This document shows, in pieces, positions 5,301 to 56,169 of a stretch of 64,000 nt of DNA. The notes beneath the pieces are model-generated. The model was not told where the DNA came from, ran no database searches, and saw nothing but the letters and a program-made list of their open reading frames with translations. Both the position numbers and the translations under genes were made by a program. How positions within the stretch are numbered: the first letter of the stretch is position 1; every line of letters starts with the position of its first letter. The DNA comes from an uncultured virus (IMG/VR IMGVR_UViG_3300025706_000025) (taxonomy: Duplodnaviria > Heunggongvirae > Uroviricota > Caudoviricetes), in the IMG/VR virus record IMGVR_UViG_3300025706_000025. One strand, 5' to 3'.

Positions 5301-6589
5301 AATTCAATCTTGATGAACTCGTCACAATCGATTACGAGACCTTCTACAGCAGTACGTACAGCCTGCGTGCCAAAGTGTACAACACCTCTTCCTATATCAC
5401 TGATCCGCAGTTTCAGATTCATTGCTGCTCGATCAAGATGGGCAAGAACAAGTCTAAATGCTATTGGGGGCAAGACGCAGTAAAAGCAGCGCTCCAAGCC
5501 ATCGACTGGACAAAGCACGATCTACTCGCCCACAACAATTTTTTCGACGGGTTCATCTCGTCGCACCATCTTGGTATCCGTCCGCGTCGCCGGTTCTGCA
5601 CCGTGCAGATGACGCGCGGTCTGCATTCGGACATGTCCAAGGCCAGTCTGCAAGCCATCTGCGAGTTTTACGGTATCCCCGGCAAGACCGAGGGTTTGAA
5701 TGACGTGAAGGGCTTGCGTACCGACGAGATTACCGGTGAGAAAAAGAAGAACCTCATGTCGTATTGCAACAACGACAACGAGAAGTGCTTCGAGGTATTC
5801 AAGAAACAGATCGAGGTATTCCCGGAACGCGAGATCAAGTTGATTGACATCACGTTGTCCATGTTCTGTGATCCAGTGCTTCAGCTCGATACTGCACGTG
5901 CCGAAACCTCGCTCAATTACGAGATGAATGAGCGACTGAAGTTCATCGCCCTTTCTGGTCATGACGACAAGACGCTCACATCGACGCCGAAGTTCGTGGC
6001 GGCGTTGGAAGCCCTTGGCGTCGCTGCCCCGAAGAAGGTCAGCAAGTACAATGGCGAAATATCATACGCCTTGGCCGAGACCGACGCTGAGTTCGTCATG
6101 CTTCAAGAACACGACGATATGCGGGTAGTTCGCCTTGTGCAAGGCCGGCTTGCCGCCAAATCAACCATGATGGAGACGCGCGCGTGGCGACTGATCCAGA
6201 TGCAAGAGACCTGTGGTTCATTGCCAGTTTTGCTGAACTACTACGGCGCGAAGACGGGCCGGTGGAGCGGTGGGAACAAATGCCTAGCAGGGGAGACGAC
6301 GATCGTTGTGAGCCGCAACGGGAAGGTTCTGTATATTCCGTTGTCTACTCTGATGGACTCTGATAGAGTGTGGGACGGAGAGGAGTTTGTCTCTCATTCC
6401 GGCCTTCTCTATCATGGCGAAAAAGGAGTTATGACCTATGACGAAATTACAGGCACACCCGACCACGAAGTTAGTACCGCCTTCGGGCAGACCCGGTTGG
6501 ACGCTGCCGAGGACACCGGGGTCGCACTTACGGTTGGGAATCTCCCTCAAGGACTGGGTGCACCTTCGCAAGATTTGCCAAGTCGCTAA
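5297..6589 (+). CDS. family A DNA polymerase N-terminal half (3'-5' exonuclease, thumb) fused to split-intein N fragment
   Basis: DYET ExoI, AHNNFFD ExoII, YCNND ExoIII, YYGAKTGRWSGGNK then intein CLAGET. Confidence 0.92.
   Translation: MKFNLDELVTIDYETFYSSTYSLRAKVYNTSSYITDPQFQIHCCSIKMGKNKSKCYWGQDAVKAALQAIDWTKHDLLAHNNFFDGFISSHHLGIRPRRRFCTVQMTRGLHSDMSKASLQAICEFYGIPGKTEGLNDVKGLRTDEITGEKKKNLMSYCNNDNEKCFEVFKKQIEVFPEREIKLIDITLSMFCDPVLQLDTARAETSLNYEMNERLKFIALSGHDDKTLTSTPKFVAALEALGVAAPKKVSKYNGEISYALAETDAEFVMLQEHDDMRVVRLVQGRLAAKSTMMETRAWRLIQMQETCGSLPVLLNYYGAKTGRWSGGNKCLAGETTIVVSRNGKVLYIPLSTLMDSDRVWDGEEFVSHSGLLYHGEKGVMTYDEITGTPDHEVSTAFGQTRLDAAEDTGVALTVGNLPQGLGAPSQDLPSR
6281..6586 (+). mobile_element. 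split intein N fragment (IntN, 102 aa)
   Basis: block A CLAGETTIVV, D.VWDG, block B TPDH; ends at stop 6587-6589. Confidence 0.88.
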
Positions 6590-6995
6590 AGATCGGTGCG
6601 TTAATCCGAAGAACGTAATGTTCCCACGTTATGGCGGGCGCGGTATCACTTTCGGGTTTTCTACCGGGAGTGATATGGCGGAGTGGGTCATTACGAACCT
6701 CGGTCTTCGCCCGACTCCAGAACATACCCTCGATAGACGGGATAACGACGAGGGATACATAGCAGGAAACCTCCGATGGGCTACTCGTGACGAACAGGCG
6801 CAGAACAAAGGCCGCTATGTTGCGTGGCGGTACGGAGAGCGGCTTCGTGAACTATGTCGCTTACGGCCTGACTTAAGCTACGAAACGATCCGTACATGGA
6901 TCAATCAAGGAATGAACAATGTTGAAATTCTCACCCGAACTAAAACCACCAGCGGTCGCCCGCGTGTACGACATTCTGGAGTGCGGGCCACGTAA
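6438..6995 (+). CDS. HNH homing endonuclease overlapping both intein halves in a different frame
   Basis: RC...YGGRGI...LDRRDNDEGY..GNLRWAT..EQAQN; AAGGAG 9 nt upstream of ATG. Confidence 0.88.
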   Translation: MTKLQAHPTTKLVPPSGRPGWTLPRTPGSHLRLGISLKDWVHLRKICQVAKDRCVNPKNVMFPRYGGRGITFGFSTGSDMAEWVITNLGLRPTPEHTLDRRDNDEGYIAGNLRWATRDEQAQNKGRYVAWRYGERLRELCRLRPDLSYETIRTWINQGMNNVEILTRTKTTSGRPRVRHSGVRAT

Positions 6996-7029
6996 CCAGT
7001 TCTGGGCAAACGGTAAAATCGTCTCGAAT
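6919..7029 (+). mobile_element. split intein C fragment (IntC, 37 aa)
   Basis: block F VYDIL...QFWANG, block G IVSN followed by Cys+1. Confidence 0.88.
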
Positions 7030-7950
7030 TGCAATTTCCAGAACATGCCGACGGCCACGAAGGATTATCCGATGGCCGGCGAGTTGCGCAAAGCGATTCT
7101 GGCACCTAAAGGCCACATGATCATCGCCCCAGACTCGGCGCAGATTGAGGCACGGGTACTGGCGTGGATCGCTGGCCATGACGAATTACTAGATCGCTTC
7201 CGTAACAAGGAGGACGTCTACAAGTTCATGGCTTCATTGATTTACAACGTGCCGGCTGAAGAGATTGATGCGGAACAGCGCTTCATCGGCAAGATCGCCG
7301 TGCTGGGCCTTGGCTACAGTATGGGTGCCAAACGCTTCCAGACTACCCTCGCCCTCGGCGTCATGGGGCCACCGATGGTCCTGTCGATGCTCGAATGCAC
7401 GAAGATCGTCAAGATGTACCGCAAGATCAACAAGGTCATCGTCGACTTCTGGGGTGAATGCGAAGACGTTCTTGAAGCGATGTGCCAAGGCAAGTCCGGT
7501 ACGTTCGGCAACAACGGGCTGCTCGAATATGACGGTACCGACATCTGGTTACCCAATGGCATGGGACTACATTACCCCGGCCTGAAGATGACGTGGGACA
7601 CCGAGCGCAATCGTCGCTCTGGTTTCTCCTACATGTCGGCCGGCATCAAGAAGCACATCTACGGCGGGCTGCTCGCGGAGAATATCGTGCAGGCTTTGGC
7701 CGGCGTGGTGATTCGCGAGGAGATGACCGAGGTCGATGATTATTACGCGACACTCAAGCTCCGCAAGGGCGAGATCGCTAAGATCGTCACCATGACGCAT
7801 GATGAGATCGTCAGCGTCGTACCGGAGCGCATCGTCAAGAAGGCGCTGGAAGTTAATCTCAAGATCATGCGGACCCCGCCAACATGGGCACCCGACATGC
7901 CTATTTGGGCAGCGGCCGAAGCTGGCTGGGCACCGAATTATTCCGTGTAG
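6919..7950 (+). CDS. IntC fused to family A DNA polymerase C-terminal half
   Basis: NFQNMP, motif A DSAQIEAR, motif B RFIGKIAVLGLGY, motif C HDE; AAGGA 7 nt upstream of ATG. Confidence 0.92.
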   Translation: MLKFSPELKPPAVARVYDILECGPRNQFWANGKIVSNCNFQNMPTATKDYPMAGELRKAILAPKGHMIIAPDSAQIEARVLAWIAGHDELLDRFRNKEDVYKFMASLIYNVPAEEIDAEQRFIGKIAVLGLGYSMGAKRFQTTLALGVMGPPMVLSMLECTKIVKMYRKINKVIVDFWGECEDVLEAMCQGKSGTFGNNGLLEYDGTDIWLPNGMGLHYPGLKMTWDTERNRRSGFSYMSAGIKKHIYGGLLAENIVQALAGVVIREEMTEVDDYYATLKLRKGEIAKIVTMTHDEIVSVVPERIVKKALEVNLKIMRTPPTWAPDMPIWAAAEAGWAPNYSV

Positions 7951-7956
7951 AAAACT

Positions 7957-7986
7957 TTGTTGTTATCTGGTATCATCTGATATACT
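7957..7986 (+). promoter_or_regulatory. putative sigma70 extended -10 promoter
   Basis: TTGTTG-N18-TATACT with TGn (TCTGATATACT), intergenic. Confidence 0.45.
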
Positions 7987-8016
7987 CTGGCAGAGTGTTC
8001 TAAAGGATAAACAAAC

Positions 8017-8445
8017 GTGAGTCAAAAACTAAACGCGATGAAGCACGGGCAATCGAAAACCCCGCTTTATCGCGTGTGGAACGCGATGAAGAATCGTTGT
8101 GCAAATAAATCACACAAGGATTACGGCGGCCGAGGGATTTCAGTCTGCCCGCGATGGCTCGTGTGGGAAAACTTCCGAGACGATATGAGTCCGTCATTCA
8201 AAGAGGGACTCAGTCTCGATCGCATAGATAACGACGGCAATTACGAACCAACGAATTGCAGATGGGCTACTCGGATAGAGCAACGCGCGAATACACGACG
8301 TTCAGCTCCTCCGGAACTTGTACAAAAGTTAGCCGAAATCTGTCTGTCGTACTCGCATTACAAAAATCGACTTTTTCATGGCTGGACTCACGAACAAGCC
8401 AGCTCAATTCCTTTAGGAGGCAAAAGAAAATCATGGCAGTTATGA
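8017..8445 (+). CDS. free-standing HNH endonuclease
   Basis: KHG.SKTPLYRVW.AMKNRC...YGGRGISVC..W...LDRIDNDGNYEPTNCRWAT. Confidence 0.9.
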   Translation: MSQKLNAMKHGQSKTPLYRVWNAMKNRCANKSHKDYGGRGISVCPRWLVWENFRDDMSPSFKEGLSLDRIDNDGNYEPTNCRWATRIEQRANTRRSAPPELVQKLAEICLSYSHYKNRLFHGWTHEQASSIPLGGKRKSWQL

Positions 8446-8816
8446 CACTTGGTGCAATGATCGACAACATGTTCGATATCCGTGAGCAGCGCCGCGCACT
8501 GGGCGCAGAAGATAAGCGCCTCGAAGCAGACGCCAAAGAACTCGAAGCCAAGATCATTGCCAAGCTTGATGCCGAGGGCACTGACCGGGGCGCCAGCAAG
8601 AAAGCATCAGCCACTATCTCTGAATCTGACGAACCGAACGTGGTCGACTGGGACAAGTTCTGTGCCTTTGCCAAGCGCACTGGCAACATGCACTTGTTTC
8701 AGCGGCGTGTTTCTGCGCCGGCGTGGCGCGAGCTGCGCGGCCTGAAGAAATCTGAAGTACCCGGTTTGGAGGTCTTCAAGAAACGCAGCATCAATCTGCG
8801 TGTAGTTTCCAAATAA
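8433..8816 (+). CDS. conserved phage replication-region protein
   Basis: AGGAGG RBS; coiled coil then V.DWD.F...LFQRRVS...VPGL. Confidence 0.7.
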   Translation: MAVMTLGAMIDNMFDIREQRRALGAEDKRLEADAKELEAKIIAKLDAEGTDRGASKKASATISESDEPNVVDWDKFCAFAKRTGNMHLFQRRVSAPAWRELRGLKKSEVPGLEVFKKRSINLRVVSK

Positions 8817-8840
8817 CTTAACTCTCTGAAAGGAGAACCC

Positions 8841-9659
8841 ATGGCCTCAAAAGCTAAAGCAGCAGGTACCGCGGTAGCAGTTGCCCGCGCGAAAGTGAAC
8901 CTTCCGGCTCACCTTCAGGCAGGTAGCGATGACGTTGTAGCTTTTCAACAACGGCTGTCGGCCCCGTCGGGCAACAAGATCAGCGTTACGCAAGACAAGA
9001 AGTTCTCCATGCCCCCGACCGATGCTTTCCCGGCCGGCGTCAAGATGGACACCATTCATGGTGTGATCGTCGATTTCATCGCCAAGAAGAACTGGTACGA
9101 AGGCGCTTTCAATCGTGACAACATCGTGCCGCCTAACTGCTTCGCGCTGGATTTCGTTGCGCATGACGCGCTGCTTCCGTCCGAGAATTCGCCGGATATC
9201 CAAGGCGAAGCCTGCAAGACGTGCGAAATGAACCAGTGGGTTCCCGTCGCCCCCGGTGCAACGAAGAAGAAAAAGGCTTGCCAAGACAAGTACGTTTTGG
9301 CCCTTCTCGCTCCGGACGCAGCCGAAGGCGCATCGCTGATTACGTTGGAACTGTCGGCGACGGCCATCAAGGCGTTCGACAAGTACGTGCGTGATCTGGC
9401 CAATGACTACGGTCTGGCCCCTTACGCATTCGTCACCGAGTTTTCGTTCGATCCAAATTCGGAATGGGCGAGCGTTCGCTGCGGCAATCCGGCCCCGGTC
9501 AACAAGGCTTTGTACGAACTGGCAAAAAGCAAGCGCGAGGAAGCCGTTACGGTTCTCCGCGTCGAGCCGCAAACCAGCGAGTTCGAAGAAAAGGTAGTCG
9601 CAGCTCGTCTGCCTGCACCGAAAGCGCGTGCTGCCGGCAAGCCGGCCGCTAAGCGCTGA
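8841..9659 (+). CDS. putative ssDNA-binding/annealing protein
   Basis: position after pol; PNC...C..C..NQW...KAC Cys motif; function inferred. Confidence 0.5.
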   Translation: MASKAKAAGTAVAVARAKVNLPAHLQAGSDDVVAFQQRLSAPSGNKISVTQDKKFSMPPTDAFPAGVKMDTIHGVIVDFIAKKNWYEGAFNRDNIVPPNCFALDFVAHDALLPSENSPDIQGEACKTCEMNQWVPVAPGATKKKKACQDKYVLALLAPDAAEGASLITLELSATAIKAFDKYVRDLANDYGLAPYAFVTEFSFDPNSEWASVRCGNPAPVNKALYELAKSKREEAVTVLRVEPQTSEFEEKVVAARLPAPKARAAGKPAAKR

Positions 9660-9907
9660 TGTTCTGCGGATCGTGGCGCACTAACCGTGCGCTCGATTCG
9701 TACCGTTCGCTCCTCGGCGTCGTCGAGGAGCTGACGGAAGAAGAGGTGTATCACTGCCTCAAACTCGAAGTGCAATCCCAAAGGCGGAAGACAATTGTCG
9801 ACCGTCTAATCACCCGAGCTGCCGACCTTAACAAGCAGCAGTTCATCAATTCTCTAAAGGAGAAAATGTATGGCTCGCCCGAAATCCGTGATCCTCTCGA
9901 AGGATGA
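9659..9907 (+). CDS. hypothetical protein
   Basis: TGATG coupling. Confidence 0.55.
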   Translation: MFCGSWRTNRALDSYRSLLGVVEELTEEEVYHCLKLEVQSQRRKTIVDRLITRAADLNKQQFINSLKEKMYGSPEIRDPLEG

Positions 9908-10133
9908 GAAGAAGTCCATCGTCGCCGAACTCAAGACCAAGGTCAAGGCCGCGAAGGATAGCGTCAAGCAGTTCGCCGGCATCGCCAAGGAAGCCGACAA
10001 GGTCTATACCGCCGCCGGCAAGGCCCATCTGGCTGCCCTGAAAGCGAATGACAAGGCCGCGGCCGCCGCTGCCAAGGAACTGGCTTCGCTGGAAGCCCAG
10101 CTGAACGCGCTGACCACTTCCGTTACCGCCTAA
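9870..10133 (+). CDS. Ala/Lys-rich, possibly DNA-binding protein
   Basis: AAGGAG RBS, strong codon bias. Confidence 0.7.
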   Translation: MARPKSVILSKDEKKSIVAELKTKVKAAKDSVKQFAGIAKEADKVYTAAGKAHLAALKANDKAAAAAAKELASLEAQLNALTTSVTA

Positions 10134-10218
10134 AGCGGCTTGGAGTTTCCTCGTTCTCCGGTTGCGCGATCTTGTGATACCGCACAAACAAAACGAGGAC
10201 TAATTCTGAGGAGTAATA

Positions 10219-10767
10219 ATGCGACGCATCATGCTCGACATCGAGACACTTGATACTGCTTCGACAGCGGTTATTCTGTCAATCGGCGCAGTCGAATTCG
10301 ATGATACAACTCTTGGCCGTCGGTTCCACGAACGAATCGACATTGACTCGTGCCTCAAGCACGGGCTTACCGTGAGCGGCAACACTATCGAGTGGTGGAT
10401 GGAGCAGTCCGCGGAAGCGCGTAATATTTTCAAGCACGCTTCCCTACCACTCGACCGCGTGTTGATCGATTTGGCTACGTGGCTCGACTGGGGCCAAGTC
10501 GACGAGGTCTGGGCCAACGGCTCTGACTTCGACTTCCCGATCATCGCTAATGCGTTCAAGGCGATTGGTGCCGGTAATCCGCCGTGGGCATATTTCAAGC
10601 TCCGCGATTACCGGACCATTCGCAAAATGTACCCGAAAGCGTTGGCCAAGAGCCTCGAGCATGCCCCGGCCGTCAAACACGACGCGCTGGAAGATGCAAT
10701 TGCACAGGCGCTGACGCTGCAGGCGTTGATCGCCTGCAAGGAACCTCTTCAGGAGTTGGCAGCATGA
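10219..10767 (+). CDS. DEDDh 3'-5' exonuclease (Rv2179c/DUF5051-like)
   Basis: MLDIETL, TIEWW, WANGSDFD, RDYRT, HDALEDA. Confidence 0.88.
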   Translation: MRRIMLDIETLDTASTAVILSIGAVEFDDTTLGRRFHERIDIDSCLKHGLTVSGNTIEWWMEQSAEARNIFKHASLPLDRVLIDLATWLDWGQVDEVWANGSDFDFPIIANAFKAIGAGNPPWAYFKLRDYRTIRKMYPKALAKSLEHAPAVKHDALEDAIAQALTLQALIACKEPLQELAA

Positions 10768-11261
10768 AACTTGCCGAATGCCACCCGACCCGTAAGCACC
10801 AAGCACGCGGTATGTGCAAAGCGTGTTACGACAAATGGCTGAAGGCGCAAAATGCCGAGTACAAAGATCGTCAGCTTTCTAACGCAACAGTCTGGGCGCG
10901 TAATAACCCAGACAAGATGGCGATCATTGCGGCTCGGCGTAAAGCAAAAGATAAAGCAGACCCTACTTTCTCTGCTCGCCAAAGAGACAGGGCAATTAAA
11001 AGGAAGTACGGCATATCGCAAGTTGAGTACGAAGCAATGTTCAAAAAGCAGAAAGGACGTTGCGCGATATGCCACAGAGAATCCGGTGAAAAACCTTTAC
11101 ACATCGACCATTGCCATAAAACGGGCGTAGTACGCGGGCTGTTGTGTCATCAGTGTAACTGGTATCTCGGAACTATCGAGGCAGATCATCATGTATGGAC
11201 GAGGCTTAGTAAATATGTCGCTACCGCAAAAAGCATCAAAGCAAATAACTCCCGTCGCTAA
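10764..11261 (+). CDS. free-standing recombination endonuclease VII-family homing endonuclease
   Basis: KYGIS...QKGRCAIC...HIDHCHKTGVVRGLLCHQCN; AGGAG RBS, ATGA overlap. Confidence 0.88.
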   Translation: MKLAECHPTRKHQARGMCKACYDKWLKAQNAEYKDRQLSNATVWARNNPDKMAIIAARRKAKDKADPTFSARQRDRAIKRKYGISQVEYEAMFKKQKGRCAICHRESGEKPLHIDHCHKTGVVRGLLCHQCNWYLGTIEADHHVWTRLSKYVATAKSIKANNSRR

Positions 11262-12620: not shown

Positions 12621-12621
12621 A

Positions 12622-15996: not shown

Positions 15997-16178
15997 GCTA
16001 CGTCGCCTACGCGCGACAGAAGGATGGCAAGCTGGCGGCATTCGAAGTGCCGTCGGACTTGTCCATTCCCGAAGTCATCGAAGCCGTGAAGAGCGAACTC
16101 GACGTCGAGCGAGCGATGGTGCTCGTATATGATGCCGACAAAACACCACGTCCTCCATCTGAAAAGGAAGCAGCATGA
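15993..16178 (+). CDS. hypothetical protein
   Basis: GTGA/ATGA coupling on both sides. Confidence 0.5.
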   Translation: MSYVAYARQKDGKLAAFEVPSDLSIPEVIEAVKSELDVERAMVLVYDADKTPRPPSEKEAA

Positions 16179-16855
16179 TCATCTCTCCGATGAAGGTTAC
16201 ATACCGTCGGCACATGGGCGACGATTTGACTATTGTCGATGCAGCCCGTGTATCGTTCGATAAAGAAAGCAAGTGGGAAGACACGGACAGCAGATTTAAT
16301 CAGCTGAATCACGACGATAGCAAACTCATCAACTATCTTGCCAAGCACAAGCACTGGTCGCCGTTCGCTCACACCAGCGTGCAGCTGCGGGTCAAGGCGC
16401 CGATCTTCGTTGCCCGCCAGCTGGTCAAGCACCAAGTCGGCGGCGTCTGGAACGAAGTCTCGCGTCGGTACGTCGATAGCGAGCCGGAGTTCTGGTTCCC
16501 GGAAGTCTGGCGCGGTCGTCCGGTAAACGCCAAGCAGGGAAGCAATGGGATGATCGACAATGTATTCACCAAACAACTTGTGGATGTAACGAGCAAGGAT
16601 ACGATGGGGAATGCTTTGGCAGCATACATCTACATGCTCGGCGAGGGTGTTGCTCCTGAACAGGCTCGCATGGTCTTGCCACAGAACATGATGACCGAGT
16701 GGATTTGGACCGGCTCGCTGATGTTCTGGTGCCGTGTCTGTCGCGAGCGGCTGGCCCCCGGCGCGCAGGCAGAGACTCGTGAAGTTGCCGAGCAGATCGC
16801 CGAGATCGTCGCCCCGCTGTTCCCGGTTTCGTGGGCAGCTCTGATGGAGAAGTGA
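16175..16855 (+). CDS. thyX: FAD-dependent thymidylate synthase
   Basis: AARVSF, H.SPF.H, PIFVARQLVKH, NEVSRRY, APEQARMVLPQ. Confidence 0.93.
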   Translation: MIISPMKVTYRRHMGDDLTIVDAARVSFDKESKWEDTDSRFNQLNHDDSKLINYLAKHKHWSPFAHTSVQLRVKAPIFVARQLVKHQVGGVWNEVSRRYVDSEPEFWFPEVWRGRPVNAKQGSNGMIDNVFTKQLVDVTSKDTMGNALAAYIYMLGEGVAPEQARMVLPQNMMTEWIWTGSLMFWCRVCRERLAPGAQAETREVAEQIAEIVAPLFPVSWAALMEK

Positions 16856-47614: not shown

Positions 47615-47632
47615 TTTGATTCTCCTTTCAGG

Positions 47633-48178
47633 TCACATATCTGGCCAGACTCTGTTGGACTTCGTCAGATTTGCGGACGCGACAAGGAGCTGTAAGTTGT
47701 GCTCGCAGTGCAACCCGCAAACCCGAGAACTCTTGAGCGGTACGATGTGGTCCACATGGACTTCGACACCCAGCCGATCACTTTCGAGTCTTGCCAGTTC
47801 GTAGAACAGTGCGATGTACTTGTCGTTGGCCCACGAAGGAGTTGCCTGAAGTTTCCGTGCGCGGCGTCGAGCCTGAGTAGCGTTATGCGTATGCCTGTTG
47901 GCGGTACGCCACTTTCTCTCTGCTTCCCGTCGGACGGCCTTGTTGGCGTGGTAGTAAGTGTGCTGTCGAATAGCCTCGCCTAGCTTGTTAGCCTCGCGGA
48001 ACTTAGCTCCGGCAATCCTGTTCCGCTCGCGTACCGTGTTTCGGTTCTCGGCGGCGTAGAAATTAGCTTTCGCTTTCGCGCACTCTTTGCACCAGTTTGT
48101 AAGGCCGTCTTTCCTGCCACTGTGTCTGTAGAACGCAGTAACGGGTTTTACTTCCTCGCACGCTGTGCAGAGCTTCAT
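47633..48178 (-). CDS. free-standing HNH endonuclease
   Basis: CxxC..CKEC, ATP.WA, HVDHIVPL...VCGLH...NLQLL....N..KSN. Confidence 0.9.
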   Translation of the reverse strand: MKLCTACEEVKPVTAFYRHSGRKDGLTNWCKECAKAKANFYAAENRNTVRERNRIAGAKFREANKLGEAIRQHTYYHANKAVRREAERKWRTANRHTHNATQARRRARKLQATPSWANDKYIALFYELARLESDRLGVEVHVDHIVPLKSSRVCGLHCEHNLQLLVASANLTKSNRVWPDM

Positions 48179-48419: not shown

Positions 48420-48425
48420 CACATG

Positions 48426-48977
48426 TCATGCGATTTCCCAGTCTTGCATGAGCAGGTCGGTAGTGCTCGGTACCCACCCCATGACGATCGCGCCTTGCGC
48501 ATTCTTCAGAGTCATCGCCGGGACCACCTCTGCGGTACCATCAGATTGAGCAAACGCGTAGTCCTTGTTGGGCTGTGCCCAGAAGTCCGTATGCCTGACC
48601 TGCCCGCCTCGGGAGAAGGCTACCCATTGCCCCGGTGCATTCCAGCCGGCGCGCGTGACGCGCTTGCCATTCTTGGCCTGTCGAATGGCCCAGCCGATGT
48701 CGTGGTTCTCGTCGCCACGGGCGATGGTGTGCCATTCTTCGGCCAGCAAGTAGCCTTCGAGTGGCCACAGCTTGCTGAAGGCGTCTTCGTAGGAGTATTT
48801 GCGACCAAGCGCCTCGTCGAAATTGCAGGCGAGGACGCAGGCTGAGTGTCCATTCACCGTGAAGTTGTTGCCCATCGTAATGGTGCAGATGGTCGTGCGG
48901 CCGTCCTTCATCACGATGTACTCGACGTCCCGAATACGGGACTCAAGATACTGCTTGTCGACGGATGTGCGGCTCAT
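48426..48977 (-). CDS. Phage_gp49_66 domain + DUF2829 (Tad2-type) fusion; putative nucleotide-signal sponge
   Basis: TIC...NNFTV.G.SAC....NFD..LG......A..KLW.LEGY; GWA....K.G.RV.R.GWN...GWVPS.TDLL..DW. Confidence 0.8.
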   Translation of the reverse strand: MSRTSVDKQYLESRIRDVEYIVMKDGRTTICTITMGNNFTVNGHSACVLACNFDEALGRKYSYEDAFSKLWPLEGYLLAEEWHTIARGDENHDIGWAIRQAKNGKRVTRAGWNAPGQWVAFSRGGQVRHTDFWAQPNKDYAFAQSDGTAEVVPAMTLKNAQGAIVMGWVPSTTDLLMQDWEIA

Positions 48978-49390
48978 TTGAATGCTCCGATACGCTCTTC
49001 AAGGATCGAGGAATACACGCTCATGGCGACTTCCTGCCTGACCAGCCGATTCTGTTCGACCGTATCAAGGGTCGGGAAAACGGGGCTGGACATATTGAAC
49101 CGGCGCAGCGCGGAGAGCTTCTTGTCCAGTTCCGTCTTTTCGTCGATTACCCGTTGCTCGTGTGAGGCACGCACGAGGTGGTAGGCGCGCTCGAAGACGT
49201 CCTTGGGCGACCAGCTGATGTACCCGGCGAAGTTCGGGTGGTTGGCCTTGCCGCCGTCCGTGTATTCGACCAGATAGCCCTCGTCCACGCCGTCCTCGTC
49301 CGCCGGAAGTGCCCAGCCGCGCAGGATGTTGTAATCGGCCCGGTTCATCGGTGTGGCATTGATCGTCTTGGTGCCGGTGTAGATTTTCAT
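48974..49390 (-). CDS. two-domain protein (Y.GTK...GY.SWSPK.VFE.AY + crAss001_48-like helical domain)
   Basis: motifs seen; both domain types often occur with gp49/DUF2829 domains in phages. Confidence 0.7.
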   Translation of the reverse strand: MKIYTGTKTINATPMNRADYNILRGWALPADEDGVDEGYLVEYTDGGKANHPNFAGYISWSPKDVFERAYHLVRASHEQRVIDEKTELDKKLSALRRFNMSSPVFPTLDTVEQNRLVRQEVAMSVYSSILEERIGAFK

Positions 49391-50403
49391 ACGAAGTCAC
49401 CCCGCATCTTGGACTTGGTGGCGTCAGGCAGCGCCGAGAACTCGGCGAAGGTCATCTGGCTGGCTTCCGGGATGTCCTTGGTCTGGCCGTGCTTGTCGCT
49501 GTCAGCGCCCACAGGCTTCGTGGAGGCCGGCTGGCGCGACGCAGCATCGAGGTTCTTGGCCACGGCAGCGGTCTTGCGGTCTTGGCCCTTGGAGGCCGCG
49601 CTGAGACCTGTCTTGGCCGGTTCATCTGCGACGGCGACCGCTGCTTGGCGGCCCATGACGTACTTGACGGCCTTGAGCAGAGCTTTGGACGCCGACAGGC
49701 GCTCGCGATCCATGTACCCGCGCTGTTTGTCCAGCACGTCGTCGGTGATGTCCTGATCGAACTCCTCGGAAGTCTCGTCGAGCTGCGGATAGTTGGCCTC
49801 GATGTTCTCGATGGCCAGCTCCATGCGCATGCCTTCCAGCGCCTGATCCTTGGCCGCCATAGACATGTCGCCGGCTTGTTGAATGGCGATCTGCCGATTT
49901 AGGCGGTCGGCCTCGGCGGACAGTTGCGCGGCCTTTTCTTCGTCGTTGTCGATGGTCGCCTTGCGTTCGGCAGAGCGCAGCTCCTGCACCTTCGCTTCGA
50001 GCTGTCCGACATCAGCATTGCGCTGAATCTGCTGGTTCGCCCGGGTGGCTTCAGCCAGCAGGCGCTCAGCCGTCTCGGCGCGGTCACGCTCCTTCTGAAC
50101 AGCGCTGTCGAAGCGCGCCTTCGGGATCGTGGCGCCCTCGTCCTTGGCCTTCGGCGCGAACTTGCCGGTAGCGTCGCGCGGCGGCTCATCCTTCTTTTCG
50201 CCCTCGCCTTCGCCGGTGGCGACCTTGAGGTCAGCCTCTTCTTGCGCGGCAGCGGCGGCAGCGGCTTCAGCTGCTGCAGCGGTCTCGTCGGCGGTCGACG
50301 TGGCGACGAAATTGTCGCCGCGGTCGGCCGTGCCGCCGCCACCCTCGCCGTCGCCGGCAGGGGCCATAAGGTTCAGACCAAACAGCTTCTGATAGAGGGA
50401 CAT
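49387..50403 (-). CDS. capsid scaffolding protein
   Basis: acidic coiled coil, IPK.RFD, C-terminal EF.ALP; between portal and MCP. Confidence 0.75.
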   Translation of the reverse strand: MSLYQKLFGLNLMAPAGDGEGGGGTADRGDNFVATSTADETAAAAEAAAAAAAQEEADLKVATGEGEGEKKDEPPRDATGKFAPKAKDEGATIPKARFDSAVQKERDRAETAERLLAEATRANQQIQRNADVGQLEAKVQELRSAERKATIDNDEEKAAQLSAEADRLNRQIAIQQAGDMSMAAKDQALEGMRMELAIENIEANYPQLDETSEEFDQDITDDVLDKQRGYMDRERLSASKALLKAVKYVMGRQAAVAVADEPAKTGLSAASKGQDRKTAAVAKNLDAASRQPASTKPVGADSDKHGQTKDIPEASQMTFAEFSALPDATKSKMRGDFV

Positions 50404-52569
50404 TTATTTCTCCTTGGGGGTGCTTGATTGCGGTTGTGCGCTGGCCCGTAGGGTCGCAGCGCGATTGGTTTCAGACTCTGCTTGCTTCAGTTCTGCATCG
50501 TGTGCTGCCTGTTGCTCTTTGATCCCGTGCTCTCGCTCGGCCAATTCCATTTCATGGTCTTGCTTTCGTTCGGCCAAAGACATCTCGTGTCCTTGCTTCT
50601 GCTCGGCCAGTGCCATCTCTTGCTGCGCTTTTTCCGGACCGTCGCCAGAAGAAGCGGCCTTCTCTGCTTCGATCCCAATACGAGCATCTTCCTGCGCGAT
50701 CGCGGCTATGGACTGCTGAGTCTTGGCCTTCTTCAGCTCGGCATCGGCAGTCTTGGACATGGCGTCGGCTTCCATGACCGCCACCGAGGCCTCATCCGCC
50801 CGAGCCTTGAGGGCGGCAGCGGCCTGCGCTTCCGGCCCGCTCTGCTCATTTTGCATGCGTTTGGAGATTTCCGACTTGCGCATCAAGCGGCTGTTCTCGA
50901 TGAGGACGTCATCAGGAATTGCTACGCCAGCTTCGCGCATCGCCACTGCCTGCTCGAACTGGCTGTCTTCCAACGTGGCGCGGTACGGCGTGCTGGTGAT
51001 CACGATGTTGTACTCGCCGACCGTCAGGTCGTTGGTGATCTCACCGGTGCTCTCATTGTACTGATTGACCGGAACTTCTTCGGCCGCCATGAGCAGATCG
51101 TCGTGGGTGATGTTGATCAGGCGTTCCTCGGTGTAATACTCCTGAATCATGTCGATCAGGTTCCGGGCAATCAGGAAGTCGGTGCGCTCCAGATTGTCCA
51201 TCACCTTCGTGGTGTTGGTGCTGCCAGCCTGTTGCTTGGCCTGAATCGCCTTGGCGGCCACGTCCTCGCGGTCGAAGCCCTGCATCGAGTCCGAGATGTT
51301 GCTGATCGTCTTGATGTGCTCTTCGGCCTTGTAGCTGATCCGGTCGAGACCCTGCGGCGTGGCATTCGGGGTGATCTTCTCCGCGCCGGCGACGTCATCC
51401 AGCTCCAGCACGAGGCCGGTCGAGGCGCCCTTCTGCTCCAGTTCCTCGATCGACATGTTCTTCAGGGCACCGGTTTTGATCTTCCAGCCGCTGTTCGCCG
51501 TGGTGTTCACGACGTGCAGCTCTTGGCTGGAAACCTTGTTCAGGAGTTCCTGCGGCCCCAAGAGGTTTTCCACCAGCCCGATGGTGCGGCCGTAGCGGAA
51601 GTACGGGAAGTACGGAATGACCGTGAAGTGCTTGTACGGCGACCAATCGTCATGGAGAACGATGTTGTCGGCCGTGACAGTCCAGCGTATGCGTTTAACC
51701 AGCTTCTTGGTGGTCGATACTCGGCCGCCTGCTTTTTCGATGACGGAGGCGATGCGATTTCGATCCCAGCTTGTCGGAATTGGTCGCATATCTCCTGTCT
51801 CAATATCGACGAAATGCAATTGCTTGTCGAGTTTTCGATATTGTCGATCGAGTACGCGAATGTTTCGGCGGACGTCGCTCGGATCAGTGACACCGTAATA
51901 TCCTGCAAGCGGTAATACACCGCCGAATCGATCACGGACGCGTTCAATGGAGTCGTAACCGTAGGGGAAAGAGGAACCATCTTTGAGCTTCAGGAGTTCT
52001 GCGTCATCTTCGGAATACAGGACAGCGATGTCCTGCGGCGTGGCCCACTTGGTCGTGAAGACGTCGTTCCACTTGTCCGGGTCGTATTCCTCGGCATCCG
52101 GGTCAATCACGACGTTCTTGGAGTTGAGGTTCTCGATGCGCGCCTCACCGATCATGCTGTCGGTGAAGTCGAGGCGGAGGTCAATGAAGCCTCGGCTGCG
52201 GATGACGCCGTCGGCGAACAGCTCAGAGCGCACCCATGGCAACTGGTTGTTCTGGGCGATCTGCTTGAAGACCTTCGTCATCGCGTCGGCAGTATCGGTG
52301 TTGGCGCCGGTGGACGGCCGCAGGATTGTCTCGCTGCGGTTGTAAATCTGCTGGCCGAACAACGTGCCGAGCGTGCTGATGATCTTGTTGATCGTGATGG
52401 CGGGCCGGCGCTGGAGCGCCAGCGTGTTCAGGTCACTCTGTAACCACTGATCGCCGGCGAAGAACTTGTCGCACTTGTCTGCCTTGTTGACGAATTCCAA
52501 ATGGCCACGATCGCGGCAATACTGAAAGCGCATCCATTGCTCGCTGGCGATGTGGTTATTGACTGGCAT
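50404..52569 (-). CDS. portal protein
   Basis: FFAGDQW, RP.ITINKI, D..I..RG, PY.HF..IPYFPY...G.VE.L..PQE.LNK. Confidence 0.9.
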   Translation of the reverse strand: MPVNNHIASEQWMRFQYCRDRGHLEFVNKADKCDKFFAGDQWLQSDLNTLALQRRPAITINKIISTLGTLFGQQIYNRSETILRPSTGANTDTADAMTKVFKQIAQNNQLPWVRSELFADGVIRSRGFIDLRLDFTDSMIGEARIENLNSKNVVIDPDAEEYDPDKWNDVFTTKWATPQDIAVLYSEDDAELLKLKDGSSFPYGYDSIERVRDRFGGVLPLAGYYGVTDPSDVRRNIRVLDRQYRKLDKQLHFVDIETGDMRPIPTSWDRNRIASVIEKAGGRVSTTKKLVKRIRWTVTADNIVLHDDWSPYKHFTVIPYFPYFRYGRTIGLVENLLGPQELLNKVSSQELHVVNTTANSGWKIKTGALKNMSIEELEQKGASTGLVLELDDVAGAEKITPNATPQGLDRISYKAEEHIKTISNISDSMQGFDREDVAAKAIQAKQQAGSTNTTKVMDNLERTDFLIARNLIDMIQEYYTEERLINITHDDLLMAAEEVPVNQYNESTGEITNDLTVGEYNIVITSTPYRATLEDSQFEQAVAMREAGVAIPDDVLIENSRLMRKSEISKRMQNEQSGPEAQAAAALKARADEASVAVMEADAMSKTADAELKKAKTQQSIAAIAQEDARIGIEAEKAASSGDGPEKAQQEMALAEQKQGHEMSLAERKQDHEMELAEREHGIKEQQAAHDAELKQAESETNRAATLRASAQPQSSTPKEK

Positions 52570-52750
52570 AGATGTCCTTGATCTTGGTGTAAAGCTCGCG
52601 TAGTTCGTCTTCCGACATTTGCTGCAAGTCCGGTTTCTTCCACACGTTATGATTGCCCCATGCTTCGGCTATCAATGCGGCGTAGTCGCCTCGGGTTAAT
52701 TCACGCGGTACGCCGGCCCCCCGAACGGCGTCCACGAGCATTTCTTTCAT
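52556..52750 (-). CDS. hypothetical protein
   Basis: ATGA coupling. Confidence 0.55.
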   Translation of the reverse strand: MKEMLVDAVRGAGVPRELTRGDYAALIAEAWGNHNVWKKPDLQQMSEDELRELYTKIKDIYASQ

Positions 52751-53100
52751 CGCAAGAAGCGCAACTTGTATGCGGTGCTGGCGATCAGATCGCGGATTTC
52801 ATCGAGGGTGTTGAGCAAGTTGCTGTCGGATGCATCGAGGCCTTTGGCGCACTCGTCGACGCATTCACGCAAGTCGTCCATGAGCAAGATCGGGTCGGAA
52901 TACGGAGAGTATTTCGCCGGGTAGCTGTCAATCAGCGCATGCTCGCCTTGGTATGCTTCGGCGAGGCCGTCGACCAAATCGATGATTCCTTCATAGAATC
53001 CTTGGAGAGCGACGTGCTGTGCGTACGACCGGCTCTTCAGGTGAAGGACATGCGCCGTGGTGCGCGCATGGAAAAGCTCCATTACCAGTTTCCCGATCAT
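52747..53100 (-). CDS. ferritin/Dps-like phage protein (DUF5856-like)
   Basis: H..HL...SYA.H.AL..FY......D.LAEAYQG...N..DEI......T.YKL. Confidence 0.8.
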   Translation of the reverse strand: MIGKLVMELFHARTTAHVLHLKSRSYAQHVALQGFYEGIIDLVDGLAEAYQGEHALIDSYPAKYSPYSDPILLMDDLRECVDECAKGLDASDSNLLNTLDEIRDLIASTAYKLRFLR

Positions 53101-53423
53101 TTCGGCTCCACGATTTCCCAAGCGACGACAGAAGTATCCGTGGCGTCTGCGGAAGTGATGGTGAACGAAGTGCCGACGACGCGAGCGGTCACGGCCATGG
53201 CCTTGGCAGCGGTCACGGTGCCGAGGGCTTGTTGTTGCAAGAAGATTCGGGAGTTGGCCGTCACGATGGAGGAGTTGATGGTAGCGGTGCCGGCCACCAG
53301 CGTGGCCACGCCCATGGCGGAATCCGCGTCGCCTTCCTTGATCTTGTCGCCGTCGCCGTTACGCGAGGCGGGCGGGTCGTAGTTGTCGTTTCCGATGTAA
53401 GGGCTGGAGTTCGTTTTGCTCAT
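53097..53423 (-). CDS. small virion-associated protein
   Basis: G.ATLVAGT.T....VTANSRIFL...GTSFTI.S....DTS.VAW. Confidence 0.65.
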   Translation of the reverse strand: MSKTNSSPYIGNDNYDPPASRNGDGDKIKEGDADSAMGVATLVAGTATINSSIVTANSRIFLQQQALGTVTAAKAMAVTARVVGTSFTITSADATDTSVVAWEIVEPK

Positions 53424-53450
53424 GGTGTTCCTTTCGTCAGATTGCGCGAG

Positions 53451-53461
53451 ATTGTAGCAGA
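53451..53461 (-). promoter_or_regulatory. putative extended -10 promoter
   Basis: TCTGCTACAAT just after TerL stop. Confidence 0.45.
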
Positions 53462-53463
53462 GA

Positions 53464-56169
53464 TTATGCCGCCATGTGTGAGGTCTCGCCGGCCCCCTCA
53501 GTGAAAGCGCCGAGCTTATCACGCCAGCTCTTCGTTTTCGGTGGCGGCTTCGGTCGGGGTGCTGAGCGGGTAAGCGTCAGGCGCACGCACCACGCCGCCG
53601 CATCGACTTGGTCGTCGTGCTTGCCGGCCGGGAATGTCATCAGCTCACGTACGAACGCGCCGGTCCACGCCTCGTCCTTCTTGATGAACACCTTGTGCAG
53701 CTGCATCCGGCCCTTGAGCGGGTTTGCCCGCACCAGTTTGTCCGTCAGCGGCTGGAGAATCTCGAAGGTGGTGTAGTGCTGGCGCTCAAGGCAGCGCTTC
53801 TCGTACTGCGCCCTGATCGACTTGAAAATCTGCCCGTCCTCGAAGCCCAGCAAGTCTGCGCCCCAGTTGATGCTCTGGTCAATCATGTGCTCGACGATCG
53901 CATTACCGTCGTCGGAGCGGAAGCGCAGGACGTGCAGCACGTAGAGGTTGTCGAACTCATCCTGCCCGATCGTGCAGCAGACCGTGTAGTCGTTGTGGGT
54001 GGCCTCGGTGATCGCGAAGTCCCATGCCTGATAGATGAACATGTTCCGGCGCTGCGGAGCATGCACGTAGTAGTGGATCATCTCCTTGCTGAAGTAGATA
54101 CCGTCGTCAGGCGTCGGGTTCTGCTGGTACAGCGCCTGCCACACCCGCTTCTGGCCGCTGGCCACGAGGTTGCGCTTGATCCGCAGCATCGCCTCGGTGT
54201 CGTAGCGCGCCGGGTGGATCGCCGTGCCGCGCGGCCGGGTGAGCTTCGCGCCTTCCGGGATTGTGGATTCCGGGGCGTACTGCACGATGCTGTCGTCGAG
54301 CAGCAGATACTCGTCGCCCTCGTCGTTGATCGCCGGGTACTTGATCACCTCGAAGACGTCGCCGTCGCCGCTGGCCATCACCTGCTGAATCTTCCCGGCC
54401 CAGTCATCTTCGTTCCACCACGTATTCGAAACGCATAAACCGTTCGCGATGAAATTCGTCGTTCTATCAACCTGAATATCGAAAACCTCCTCCACGCCGT
54501 CCGGCTCTATAGACAGAATTTCACTTAGCGTGAAGTCCGAGGTATCGTGCAGCGGCTCGTGCGACGGGCTCAGTTCTAATATGTCCGATTCCGGCGTTGC
54601 AGTCGTTGCAGAGTAGGCCCCTGACTTTGCCAGTGTCGTGGCAGTGGTCGACTGCGAGGGCGTAGTTCCACACGCTTGGGTTGCGTCGTCCGTCCCCCTT
54701 ACAAATGGCGCAGACACCTCCTTGCTGTTCGAGAAGCGCGTCGTAATCTGCGAGAGTAATCCCGTAGCGATGCTTGAGCCGCGCTTCACGGCGCTTCTCC
54801 CAATCGACAGCGCTCGGGCTACGGTGCCCGTCCGCCCAGCGTTTCTTCCCATAGTGCGAGTCGCATAACCCCCTGCATTTAGCCGGTTTGTCGCACCCTT
54901 CAACAGAACAGGATGTTCCCTTCCACTTTCCCCACTGCCCTTTAAGGTTACGATTCTGTTCGCCGTACTCAAGCTTCTCGCCCTGATCCATTTTAGTTCT
55001 CCGGTCGCGGTTGTCGCCAAAAACGGGTGTCTTCCGTTTGCCCGCACCACTTTACCAGAAATCATCGTGATTTTCAGCACGGAATCAGGCCCGACGCTCT
55101 TTTGCTTGTCCACTCTGGTCGTCGTCAGCTTACCGTTCTCGTAGGTAGCGATCATGTCGTCTCCACGGATGAGCGCAAGTGGTTTTTCCGTGCCGTCCGC
55201 CATCATCACCGGTGTATCGCCAGTCATGCACATGATACCCAGCACACCGCCGCCGGGGGCGAGGCGGGTGTATGCCGTCGAGCCATACCACTCCCACGTG
55301 TTTTCCCGGATCGTCGGGCTGTCCGCGGCCTCGATGTCCTTTACGAGGTCATCAAGCAGAAGGATGTGGGCGCCGCGGCCGGTAATACCGGTGCCGACGC
55401 CGGCCGCCATGTAGCCACCGCCAGACAGCGTGTTCCAGTTTTCAACGCTCTGGCTAGTCGGGTCAAGGCGCATGTCTGGAAAGAGGGCTTGGAAGCTCGG
55501 GTCACGGGTGAGATCACGGATATACCTCGAAAAGGACAGGGTCAGGGACGATGTGTGGCTGGCAGCGATGATTTCCCACTCTGGGTGCTGCCCGAGCACC
55601 CACGGCGGGAAGTGCCTTGATCCTAGCTCGCTCTTTCCAGAGCGCGGGGGCATCATCAGGAGCAGGCGCGGGGACTGGCCCGCCTCAACCTGCTGCATGA
55701 ACCGCTCCAGCCGGCGGCATATGTCCTCATGCACCCACCCGGCCATGTATTTCGGGCGGTAACGCTGCACGAACGGCAAGAAGCGCCGGCGGCACAGCGC
55801 CCGGTGGGCCATTTCCTTCTCCGGGTCTGCCTCTGCTTCCTTCAGATCGAAGGCCGGGGCGGCGTAGGGCAGCTCGAAGGCCTCGTCAAGCGCCTGCTGA
55901 AGGGCGGGATTCGACGCCTTGGGTATCTTCGGGGTGGCTGGCTCTGTCTGGGGTGCCTTCTTGGCTGCGCGAGCGGCGGCGAATGAGTCCGTACCGAGCG
56001 GCCGAACGATGATTTCCGGGTATTTCGAGACTTTGGCCGGTGGTTCAGCGGGTGCCGGGGGCGGTACGCCGGCGTCGACACAGAATGGGCACTGTCCATT
56101 GGCATCCAGCGTCGAGGTTTCGCGCTCTGTCTCACAGGTAGAGCAGGGAGTGAAATCATTCGTCGACAC
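53464..56169 (-). CDS. terL: terminase large subunit with intein
   Basis: MPPRSGKS, ITGRGA.ILLLDD..KD, YQQ.P, WDFA, FPAGKHDDQVDA. Confidence 0.95.
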   Translation of the reverse strand: MSTNDFTPCSTCETERETSTLDANGQCPFCVDAGVPPPAPAEPPAKVSKYPEIIVRPLGTDSFAAARAAKKAPQTEPATPKIPKASNPALQQALDEAFELPYAAPAFDLKEAEADPEKEMAHRALCRRRFLPFVQRYRPKYMAGWVHEDICRRLERFMQQVEAGQSPRLLLMMPPRSGKSELGSRHFPPWVLGQHPEWEIIAASHTSSLTLSFSRYIRDLTRDPSFQALFPDMRLDPTSQSVENWNTLSGGGYMAAGVGTGITGRGAHILLLDDLVKDIEAADSPTIRENTWEWYGSTAYTRLAPGGGVLGIMCMTGDTPVMMADGTEKPLALIRGDDMIATYENGKLTTTRVDKQKSVGPDSVLKITMISGKVVRANGRHPFLATTATGELKWIRARSLSTANRIVTLKGSGESGREHPVLLKGATNRLNAGGYATRTMGRNAGRTGTVARALSIGRSAVKRGSSIATGLLSQITTRFSNSKEVSAPFVRGTDDATQACGTTPSQSTTATTLAKSGAYSATTATPESDILELSPSHEPLHDTSDFTLSEILSIEPDGVEEVFDIQVDRTTNFIANGLCVSNTWWNEDDWAGKIQQVMASGDGDVFEVIKYPAINDEGDEYLLLDDSIVQYAPESTIPEGAKLTRPRGTAIHPARYDTEAMLRIKRNLVASGQKRVWQALYQQNPTPDDGIYFSKEMIHYYVHAPQRRNMFIYQAWDFAITEATHNDYTVCCTIGQDEFDNLYVLHVLRFRSDDGNAIVEHMIDQSINWGADLLGFEDGQIFKSIRAQYEKRCLERQHYTTFEILQPLTDKLVRANPLKGRMQLHKVFIKKDEAWTGAFVRELMTFPAGKHDDQVDAAAWCVRLTLTRSAPRPKPPPKTKSWRDKLGAFTEGAGETSHMAA
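54424..55230 (-). mobile_element. contiguous intein (269 aa) in TerL
   Basis: CMTGDTPV.MADG, NGRHPF, VFDIQV...NFIANG..VSN/T; excision restores GIM-TWWNEDD. Confidence 0.93.
54521..54991 (-). CDS. endonuclease VII-family homing endonuclease nested out of frame within the TerL intein
   Basis: CSVEGC..RGLC..HY, RYGIT, QGGVCAIC, VDHCHDTGKVRGLLCNDCN; GGAG 7 nt upstream of ATG. Confidence 0.9.
   Translation of the reverse strand: MDQGEKLEYGEQNRNLKGQWGKWKGTSCSVEGCDKPAKCRGLCDSHYGKKRWADGHRSPSAVDWEKRREARLKHRYGITLADYDALLEQQGGVCAICKGDGRRNPSVWNYALAVDHCHDTGKVRGLLCNDCNAGIGHIRTEPVARAAARYLGLHAK

Follow-up and report, generated by a model that had tools for sequence, protein, structure and literature searches.

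A split polymerase intein and a contiguous terminase intein, each with a nested out-of-frame endonuclease gene, in one uncultured phage

Two interrupted genes in one phage segment

The stretch of 64,000 nucleotides analysed in this work (the window, from here on) comes from an uncultured phage of the Caudoviricetes (IMG/VR record IMGVR_UViG_3300025706_000025), and it carries inteins in two genes, those encoding DNA polymerase A (Pol) and the large subunit of the terminase (TerL). An earlier note on this DNA had singled out the interval from 6281 to 55230, and these two coordinates are the first codons of the two inteins. In both genes an endonuclease gene lies on the same strand as the intein, is read in a different frame and starts, behind its own ribosome-binding motif, within the N-terminal part of the intein. 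This layout, described in the note, stood; the assignment of both nucleases to the His-Me group held firmly for TerL and is only probable for Pol, because the matches of the Pol nuclease are weak. The statement that TerL is contiguous while Pol is split into N- and C-terminal intein halves (IntN and IntC), with a separate start for IntC, proved exact to the coordinate. The features of the Pol gene are the following:

5297..6280, plus strand: Pol N-extein, 328 residues, ending ...GRWSGGNK; phrog_17 (DNA polymerase); 90% identical to the uninterrupted Pol of locus L005
6281..6589, plus strand: IntN, 102 residues and a stop codon; Cys1, block B T59-P-D-H62; its last ~50 codons are shared with the next feature
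6438..6995, plus strand: open reading frame (ORF) of a probable HNH-like (PacI-like) homing endonuclease, 185 residues, free-standing, in frame +1 relative to IntN
6919..7029, plus strand: IntC, 37 residues, own ATG, in frame +2 relative to IntN, ending GKIVSN
7030..7950, plus strand: Pol C-extein, Cys+1 followed by NFQNMP; PF00476, E 1.8e-25

The Pol intein spans 749 nt, from the Cys codon at 6281 to the Asn codon at 7027-7029. The N-extein and IntN form one ORF (5297-6589), whose stop codon occupies 6587-6589, and IntC and the C-extein form another (6919-7950). The ATG of the HNH-like ORF overlaps intein codons 53-54, six codons ahead of block B, and is preceded by AAGGAG; the ORF shares 152 nt with IntN and 77 nt with IntC. 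The start codon of IntC at 6919 is preceded by AAGGAA, and IntC ends in IVSN directly before the C-extein Cys. Once the intein is set aside, the two polymerase halves (5297-6280 and 7030-7950) can be aligned over their full length with the uninterrupted Pol of L005 (90-91% identity) and with that of the nearest cultured relatives, Pseudomonas phages of the KPP25/phiR18 type, whose Pol is likewise uninterrupted and 31-38% identical to that of the window.

The motifs of a splicing domain are all present in the Pol intein (C1, T59..H62, terminal N, C+1), and a profile comparison by hhalign aligned IntN colinearly with the TerL intein from Cys1 to block B, albeit weakly (E 6e-4, probability 29%). 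The language-model look-alikes of a relative that lacks the endonuclease (the mini-intein L028) were viral Intein_splicing/HINT clusters, at 0.90-0.92. A prediction of the IntN-IntC complex scored 0.73, the best of three controls reaching 0.02; the mark used is attained by 116 of 157 solved complexes and by 2 of 215 mismatched pairs. At least 95% of the contacts agreed between runs, and the partner was modelled with a predicted local distance difference test score (pLDDT) of at least 66. Such a pass may reflect likeness to well-represented solved split inteins and is not proof of association. As judged from this model, the polymerase halves would be joined by protein trans-splicing.

The TerL gene runs on the opposite strand:

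55231..56169, minus strand: TerL N-extein, 313 residues, ending ...VLGIM; PF03237
54424..55230, minus strand: TerL intein, contiguous, 269 residues; Cys1, block B N65..H68, GLCVSN terminus, +1 Thr; PF14890, E 8.7e-11
54521..54991, minus strand: endonuclease VII (Endo VII) ORF, 156 residues, in frame +2 relative to the intein, own ATG; PF02945, E 8.2e-22; phrog_2914
53464..54423, minus strand: TerL C-extein, starting TWWNEDD; PF17289

TerL is a single ORF of 901 residues (56169-53464, minus strand) whose intein frame has no stop codon and retains C1, N65..H68, the terminal N and T+1. The Endo VII ORF starts at intein codon 80, downstream of a GGAG motif, so that residues ~99-230 of the intein are a linker translated, in a different frame, from the DNA of the Endo VII gene. 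In an AlphaFold2 (AF2) model of the TerL intein, pLDDT lay between 72 and 93 for residues 1-98 and 231-269 and below 35 for residues 99-230, and the linker is accordingly predicted to be disordered.

A penultimate His is common in inteins, although not obligatory, and in both inteins of the window this residue is Ser. The tail of the TerL intein (54424-54438, minus strand) reads L-C-V-S-N, with three adjacent codons that differ from those of its relatives.

Selection on the frames and identity of the nested nucleases

Evidence that the overlapping frames are real came from a relative found in IMG/VR at ~75% nucleotide identity (G003, with the loci L004 for Pol and L045 for TerL), in which every feature of both genes is kept: all frames, both internal ATG codons and the purine-rich motifs are conserved. 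When the differences between the window and L004 were counted by intein codon position (first, second, third), they amounted to 9, 4 and 26 where only IntN is encoded, to 64, 16 and 12 where only the HNH-like protein is encoded, and to 0, 6 and 0 where only IntC is encoded; each peak falls on the third position of the locally coding frame. The same count in the TerL linker gave 28, 62 and 37, with the peak on the third position of Endo VII. These frame-specific changes therefore indicate purifying selection on three Pol cistrons and two TerL cistrons. Considered together with the retention of the frames in a relative that is ~25% divergent, they exclude a sequencing error, which the earlier note had already thought unlikely. 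The Endo VII ORF of L045, although open, is missing some seven residues from the conserved core (...HDTG-NDCN... versus ...HDTGKVRGLLCNDCN...), and it may thus encode an inactive endonuclease within an intein that is still kept.

A further relative, G004 (loci L005, L046 and L048), has exteins ~90% identical to those of the window and both sites empty, with the junctions GGNK/VNFQ in Pol and GIM/TWW in TerL. The residue at the +1 position of Pol is Cys in the occupied gene (TGC, window 7030-7032) and Val in the empty one (GTG, L005 4985-4987), and the empty L005 allele is therefore not the product of a simple precise excision of the window's intein. Beside the Pol site, identity to G003 climbs to 0.83-0.86 over the last 180 nt; this might mark a co-conversion tract or simply the conservation of a motif, as the same stretch has 0.79-0.86 identity to the empty G004. 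Another contig, G002, holds L003 as well as the loci L047 and L049; its Pol region matches that of the window at 100% identity, and its best TerL-like match reaches only 26%. G002 is either a mosaic relative or a contig that does not reach the TerL region.

While Endo VII is a firm assignment, the nature of the Pol nuclease had to be assembled from several lines of evidence. Its ORF matched PHROG families annotated as HNH endonucleases (phrog_3377, E 2e-26), and Pfam gave no match at E <= 0.01. Its profile aligned weakly in the PDB with I-HmuI (E 0.07) and PacI (E 0.17), and an invariant core motif, DR.DN..GY.P.N.RW.T...N, could be aligned, again weakly, with the same two enzymes (PDB 3m7k, 3ldy and 1u3e). 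In the AF2 model (mean pLDDT 81.6) residues 97-122 form two strands and a helix, and pLDDT drops below 50 in the first 24 residues, the part that overlaps IntN. When this model was compared with 48,161 PDB chains by VIA-align, the top match was PacI (3m7k; Z 5.7, root-mean-square deviation 3.6 over 84 residues), whereas Foldseek found nothing in the PDB at E <= 0.001 (best E about 1). The ORF is thus a probable PacI-like HNH nuclease, and its endonuclease activity is presumed.

Each of the two nested nucleases has a free-standing paralogue in the window:

8017..8445, plus strand: HNH-like paralogue, directly downstream of Pol; phrog_374/3377; 28% identical to the HNH-like protein of the Pol intein
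10764..11261, plus strand: Endo VII paralogue; phrog_2914, E 3e-36; 41% identical to the core of the intein Endo VII

In a tree of HNH sequences the gene at 8017-8445 is sister to the HNHs of inteins at another Pol site (site c, see below) with a Shimodaira-Hasegawa-like approximate likelihood ratio test (SH-aLRT) value of 97. A free-standing gene is therefore nested among intein HNHs, and switches between the two conditions did occur. The start at 10764 was taken as the Met preceding the homology region inside the ORF 10584-11261. A candidate split exonuclease at 10219-11261 was discarded, as it consists of a complete exonuclease of 182 residues followed by this Endo VII gene.

States of the two intein lineages

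A scan of IMG/VR with the N-terminal Pol ORF yielded 33 loci, and 35 intein copies were scored, the window's among them; the census left out L003, which is identical to the window, as well as L011 and a second copy in L029, both cut by the contig end. The states were distributed as follows:

18 copies of 35: split, HNH in frame +1, IntC in frame +2
2 copies of 35: split, IntC in frame 0 with many stops
9 copies of 35: contiguous, HNH in frame +1
5 copies of 35: contiguous, HNH in frame +2
1 copy of 35: mini (L028)
0 copies of the 34 that bear a homing endonuclease gene (HEG): HNH in frame with both intein halves

The earlier note had called for such a mapping of alleles, and the result that it had named as a refutation, homologues with none but in-frame endonucleases and no overprinted or mini states, did not arise: empty, mini, contiguous-overprinted and split Pol states were all found. 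The insertion sites of the copies are three neighbouring points in the GRxS...NLQN motif (a0, a1 and a2), two later Pol sites (b and c) and some others. The frame of the HNH follows the clade, being +2 at site b and +1 elsewhere. In three loci, L012 (4949-7074), L014 (4952-7077) and L015 (1966-4100), a split copy at a1 stands beside a contiguous overprinted copy at b, and in L021 a contiguous overprinted copy with a VSN terminus occupies a2, the very site of the window. Further contiguous copies were found in L059, Pseudomonas phage MR14 and Streptococcus phage Javan255, and a further mini-intein in Moraxella phage Mcat20. Regarding the termini of the 35 copies, 25 end in HN and 10 in SN, and the nearest outgroups end in VHN.

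The two main states differ in the frame that links the intein halves. Not one of the 12 unique contiguous copies has a stop in the intein frame, when synonymous shuffles lead to an expectation of 0.5-7.7 stops, and P(0) is at most 0.003 in 8 of the 12. The contiguous copies hence keep this frame actively open by selection. Moreover, in two pairs of contiguous copies at site b, third positions of the HNH account for 75 of 135 and 82 of 128 differences in the linker, so the linkers evolve as HNH coding sequence. In split copies, by contrast, the IntN frame stops at codons 96-125 and 4-31 more stops follow. In the unique working split alleles an ATG precedes IntC in 14 of 14, with a purine-rich motif upstream in 12 of 14, and IntC comprises 26-43 residues. 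The copy in L031 (4013-4779) has an IntN stop at codon 64, frameshifts and an internal stop in IntC, and its linker frame holds 0 stops against 4.8 expected; it looks like a decaying contiguous intein that was recently broken. GC content was rejected as the factor that decides between the states, given that it ranges over 0.47-0.63 in contiguous copies and 0.43-0.60 in split ones.

A concatenated tree of IntN, IntC and HNH (33 rows, 27 of them different, and 338 columns; unrooted, with L031 and the mini L028 left out) parts the 19 split copies from the 14 contiguous ones along a single branch (support 93/93), and a single change of state suffices in 92% of 200 bootstrap trees. One transition therefore suffices to explain the distribution. 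Trees built from the HNH and from the splicing domains agree in their broad outline. The window and L004 form the sister group of the a0 copies L009 and L010, and their intein of 749 nt corresponds to the a0 type (989 nt) minus 240 nt, a loss that took the N-terminal CxC...CxxC region of the HNH. A search for longer proteins containing the HNH recovered two sequences, P0001 and P0002 (578 and 579 residues), in which the Pol N-extein, IntN and the HNH core are joined, at site a2, in a single ORF closed by the stop codon of the HNH. As to their DNA context, the viral scan gave 0 loci and the metagenome scan only empty alleles and two copies at site b. Both are sister to the window plus L004 (SH-aLRT 89), within a clade of out-of-frame copies (SH-aLRT 98), and the in-frame capture of the HNH by IntN therefore looks derived.

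The picture for the TerL intein is different. Its layout was also found in Mycobacterium phage Phlyer, Gordonia phage Angelicage, nine IMG/VR loci and 13 bacterial or metagenome-assembled genome records (named after Oleiphilaceae, Endozoicomonas, Kistimonas, Anaerolineae, Gallionellaceae, Bradyrhizobium, Oribacterium, Dysosmobacter, Clostridiaceae, Microbacteriaceae, Geobacteraceae and Caulobacteraceae). These 13 are the records with both the Endo VII and the intein parts among the 80 loci kept, 199 further relatives lying outside that set, and L044, cut by the contig end, was left out of the tallies. Contiguous alleles with Endo VII in frame +2 account for 24 of the 25 scored, and the remaining one, L043, is a mini-intein with 43 Endo VII codons left; the intein frame has no stop in 12 of 12 and 13 of 13 alleles. 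Split alleles amount to 0 of 25, although divergence reaches 34-60% identity and the records are named after Gammaproteobacteria, Alphaproteobacteria, Firmicutes, Actinobacteria, Chloroflexi and others. Between the window and the inteins of Angelicage and Phlyer the layout is alike, with identities of 50-54% for IntN, 52-53% for Endo VII and 61-64% for IntC. The CVSN tail of the window is found in 1 of the 25 alleles, and the other 24 end in VSHN (VTHN in L042), all with the penultimate His. The earlier note had observed correctly that both inteins end in VSN; since this tail is exceptional in TerL and the Pol outgroups end in VHN, the likeness is a convergence and not a common trait.

Origin of the split state, setting and meaning

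All these observations are best explained, in a reading that we hold to be probable though well short of assured, by two independent composite elements with nested out-of-frame HEGs that reached parallel stable outcomes, the members of the Pol family being linked by one transition. Each element would consist of a class-1-type intein and a HEG with a cistron of its own, on the same strand but in another frame. The Pol element would act as a cassette of three cistrons, in which the ORF of the N-extein and IntN stops within the HNH-like gene, the HNH-like gene begins inside IntN and finishes inside IntC, and IntC with the C-extein would be translated from its own ATG behind a Shine-Dalgarno-like motif within the 3' end of the HNH gene. 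The TerL intein would be made as one chain, its unstructured linker of ~130 residues kept merely free of stops and removed by cis-splicing, and Endo VII would be produced from an internal start. The TerL/Endo VII lineage and the site-a Pol clade would be old lineages with fixed states, always contiguous in the former and always split in the latter. Within the Pol family, a single transition would connect the split clade to the contiguous overprinted copies, most likely from overprinted to split, a direction that is favoured because a frame with 4-31 stops is unlikely to reopen.

The earlier note had gone further and read the TerL and Pol inteins of the window as consecutive stages of one route. 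Taken literally, this would make the overprinted state short-lived, decaying into the split one, and it could appeal to the presence of both states within one genome, to the one transition that joins them in the Pol family, to L031 as a copy caught breaking and to the overprinted copy of L021 at the window's own Pol site. The proposal is nevertheless improbable. The two splicing domains resemble each other no more than inteins do in general (BLASTP E 0.67; E 0.04 for IntC) and the two endonucleases belong to different families, so that neither part of one element is related to its counterpart; the TerL/Endo VII intein was never found split, despite its divergence and its spread over several phyla; the frame is actively held open in contiguous Pol copies; and L031 resembles a dying copy rather than a working split intein. 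What survives of the note's scheme, in which invasion of a mini-intein is followed by loss of the linker frame and a split, is its plausibility for the Pol family, where one branch separates the states, with a direction drawn from irreversibility on an unrooted tree.

A stronger competitor, which we still regard as rather unlikely, follows step II of the model of Dassa et al. (2009): a free-standing HNH would have broken the gene of a mini-intein at once, bringing a stop and a start with it, and the contiguous copies would be separate, luckier invasions without any overprinted intermediate. The split copies do form one old clade, the ATG and ribosome-binding motif of IntC lie inside the 3' end of the HNH as that model predicts, the HNH frame varies by clade, and the free-standing HNH at 8017 nests among those of inteins. 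Nevertheless, split and contiguous clades have the same layout, with the HNH starting in the N-terminal splicing region and ending in IntC, and the HNH and splicing-domain trees are broadly congruent; this common architecture and congruence are therefore better accommodated by one composite ancestor than by repeated invasions. It is very improbable that the changes of frame in Pol reflect errors of sequencing or assembly, recent frameshifts in dead genes or programmed ribosomal frameshifting, even if two +1 shifts could in theory connect the three successive frames (f, f+1, f+2). The occurrence of the three-frame layout in 18 copies on many contigs and the frame-specific third-position substitutions in each segment argue against a chain restored by frameshifting or broken by error; the variable position of the IntN stop (codons 96-125) with the 4-31 stops beyond it, and the ATG before IntC in all 14 unique split alleles, speak against it as well.

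Several points weigh against two composite elements with a single transition in Pol. The model of Dassa et al., in which the invasion itself fractures the gene, is likewise compatible with the split state having arisen once, and direct fracture accounts about as well for a single old split clade. That clade is old enough for the former linker frame to hold stops at chance level: in working split copies their number matches the shuffles, and no leftover openness was detected. The tree is unrooted, the support of its key branch (93/93) lies below the star threshold of the tool, and a tree of the splicing domains alone places the contiguous L021 within the site-a clade (SH-aLRT 94), while the concatenated tree groups it with other contiguous copies. 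The loci were drawn from pattern-based scans, a sample short of exhaustive. In TerL, selection for an open frame does not reach significance in any single sequence, since the frame is naturally stop-poor (shuffles of Endo VII give a mean of 0.3-1.9 intein-frame stops, P(0) 0.07-0.72). The Pol intein is unmatched by Pfam even at E <= 1 and by the PDB sequence profile, its place in the HINT group resting on motifs, the weak hhalign match, the language-model look-alikes and the complex model, and without a penultimate His both inteins may splice with uncertain efficiency. As for the nuclease, the window's HNH-like protein lacks the N-terminal zinc-ribbon-like CxC...CxxC region carried by its relatives, and it has an Arg at the position of the first His of I-HmuI, which we take to be the general base; PacI too has Arg there.

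The series of states in the Pol family invites a wider reading, put forward here as a tentative possibility. The family would document how both split inteins and canonical two-domain inteins come about. A free-standing PacI-like HNH gene would have settled out of frame within a small intein, giving a contiguous overprinted form whose frame selection holds open; one irreversible loss of the linker frame would have followed, and the resulting mobile cassette of IntN, HNH and IntC would have spread over three adjacent Pol sites; in P0001 and P0002 a small indel would then have captured the HNH core in frame with IntN, as a first step towards an in-frame domain.

Regarding the setting of these elements, the window encodes a portal, a major head protein, TerL, a virion protein of 2511 residues, a helicase, Pol, a ligase and the thymidylate synthase ThyX. 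It holds five homing-type nuclease genes in total, among them the two free-standing paralogues described above and a classical HNH gene (...HVDHIVPL...HN...N) at 47633-48178 on the minus strand, between the major head gene and upstream genes. A search by tblastn with parts of both inteins found no third intein in the window at E < 0.03. Two adjacent ORFs on the minus strand, 48426-48977 and 48974-49390, correspond to positions 13-86 (N-terminal) and 55-170 (C-terminal) of phrog_872. The downstream ORF carries a further domain at its N-terminus (phrog_322/3934), and the pair may represent a gene that has been split or has had its domains shuffled. In phrog_26005 (310 positions), positions 8-65 match the N-terminus of ThyX (16175-16855) and 69-183 match the IntN region of Pol (5297-6589). 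This family seems to combine a ThyX N-extein with a related IntN, a hint that the thymidylate synthase genes of other phages may be fractured.

Published precedents exist for the idea of invasion, for the arrangement as a fractured gene and for a TerL intein with Endo VII read out of frame. Dassa et al. (2009, PMC2677866) described, in the passages that concern us, fractured genes with split inteins and a free-standing endonuclease gene between the halves, and proposed that a free-standing endonuclease had invaded an intein devoid of one. The Pol gene of the window shows the same arrangement, namely two adjacent ORFs on the same strand that end in IntN and start with IntC, an endonuclease gene between them whose 3' end overlaps the downstream ORF, and a phage replication gene as context. 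It departs from the genes treated in those passages in that its endonuclease is HNH-like (PacI-like) rather than GIY-YIG or Vsr-like, an HNH fracture being only predicted there; in that the HNH gene overlaps IntN by ~50 codons and starts within the splicing domain; and in that its family includes contiguous out-of-frame members. As for TerL, the preprint by Gosselin (2025) describes, for actinophages, an intein with an out-of-frame Endo VII-like homing endonuclease; in its model, most invasions split the gene, and a nested gene in another frame is the rare outcome. The inteins of Angelicage and Phlyer agree with that of the window in the insertion site, in an Endo VII in 'frame 3' and in the open, unstructured linker; they differ in that the phage of the window lies outside the actinophages and its TerL intein ends in CVSN, not VSHN, and 13 further alleles lie in genomes of other phyla. 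The window thus adds a non-actinophage member to this architecture. A third case is the contiguous intein of cyanobacterial dnaX (Phillips, DeSimone and Gogarten, bioRxiv 10.64898/2026.09.14.751524), whose out-of-frame endonuclease is under selection and whose origin is attributed to secondary invasion of a mini-intein. It shares with the window's elements the contiguous form, the overlapping frame and the selection on the endonuclease frame, and differs in its LAGLIDADG family and cellular host; the passages that describe it make no mention of split members. Neither a fractured Pol family of the HNH type nor a census that unites empty, mini, overprinted, split and IntN-fused states in one intein-endonuclease lineage was found in the literature, subscription journals and preprint supplements lying outside the search.

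These findings have a bearing on annotation, because the GenBank entries of MR14, Javan255 and Angelicage list a plain polymerase or terminase and leave the nested nuclease genes unannotated; in MR14 (L065, 2510-3376) and Javan255 (L066, 2501-3427) an intact out-of-frame HNH lies inside the DNA polymerase coding sequence. The family also supplies new natural split inteins, some with an IntC of only 26-27 residues, which may interest protein engineers. How split inteins arise and how inteins gain endonucleases are open questions, and both published models rest on few linked examples. Here, one intein-endonuclease family spans the empty site, the mini-intein, the contiguous intein with an out-of-frame HNH, the split intein with a free-standing HNH and the split intein with an HNH fused to IntN. 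Since L012, L014 and L015 carry split and overprinted copies side by side, the order of events is therefore testable by phylogeny and experiment.

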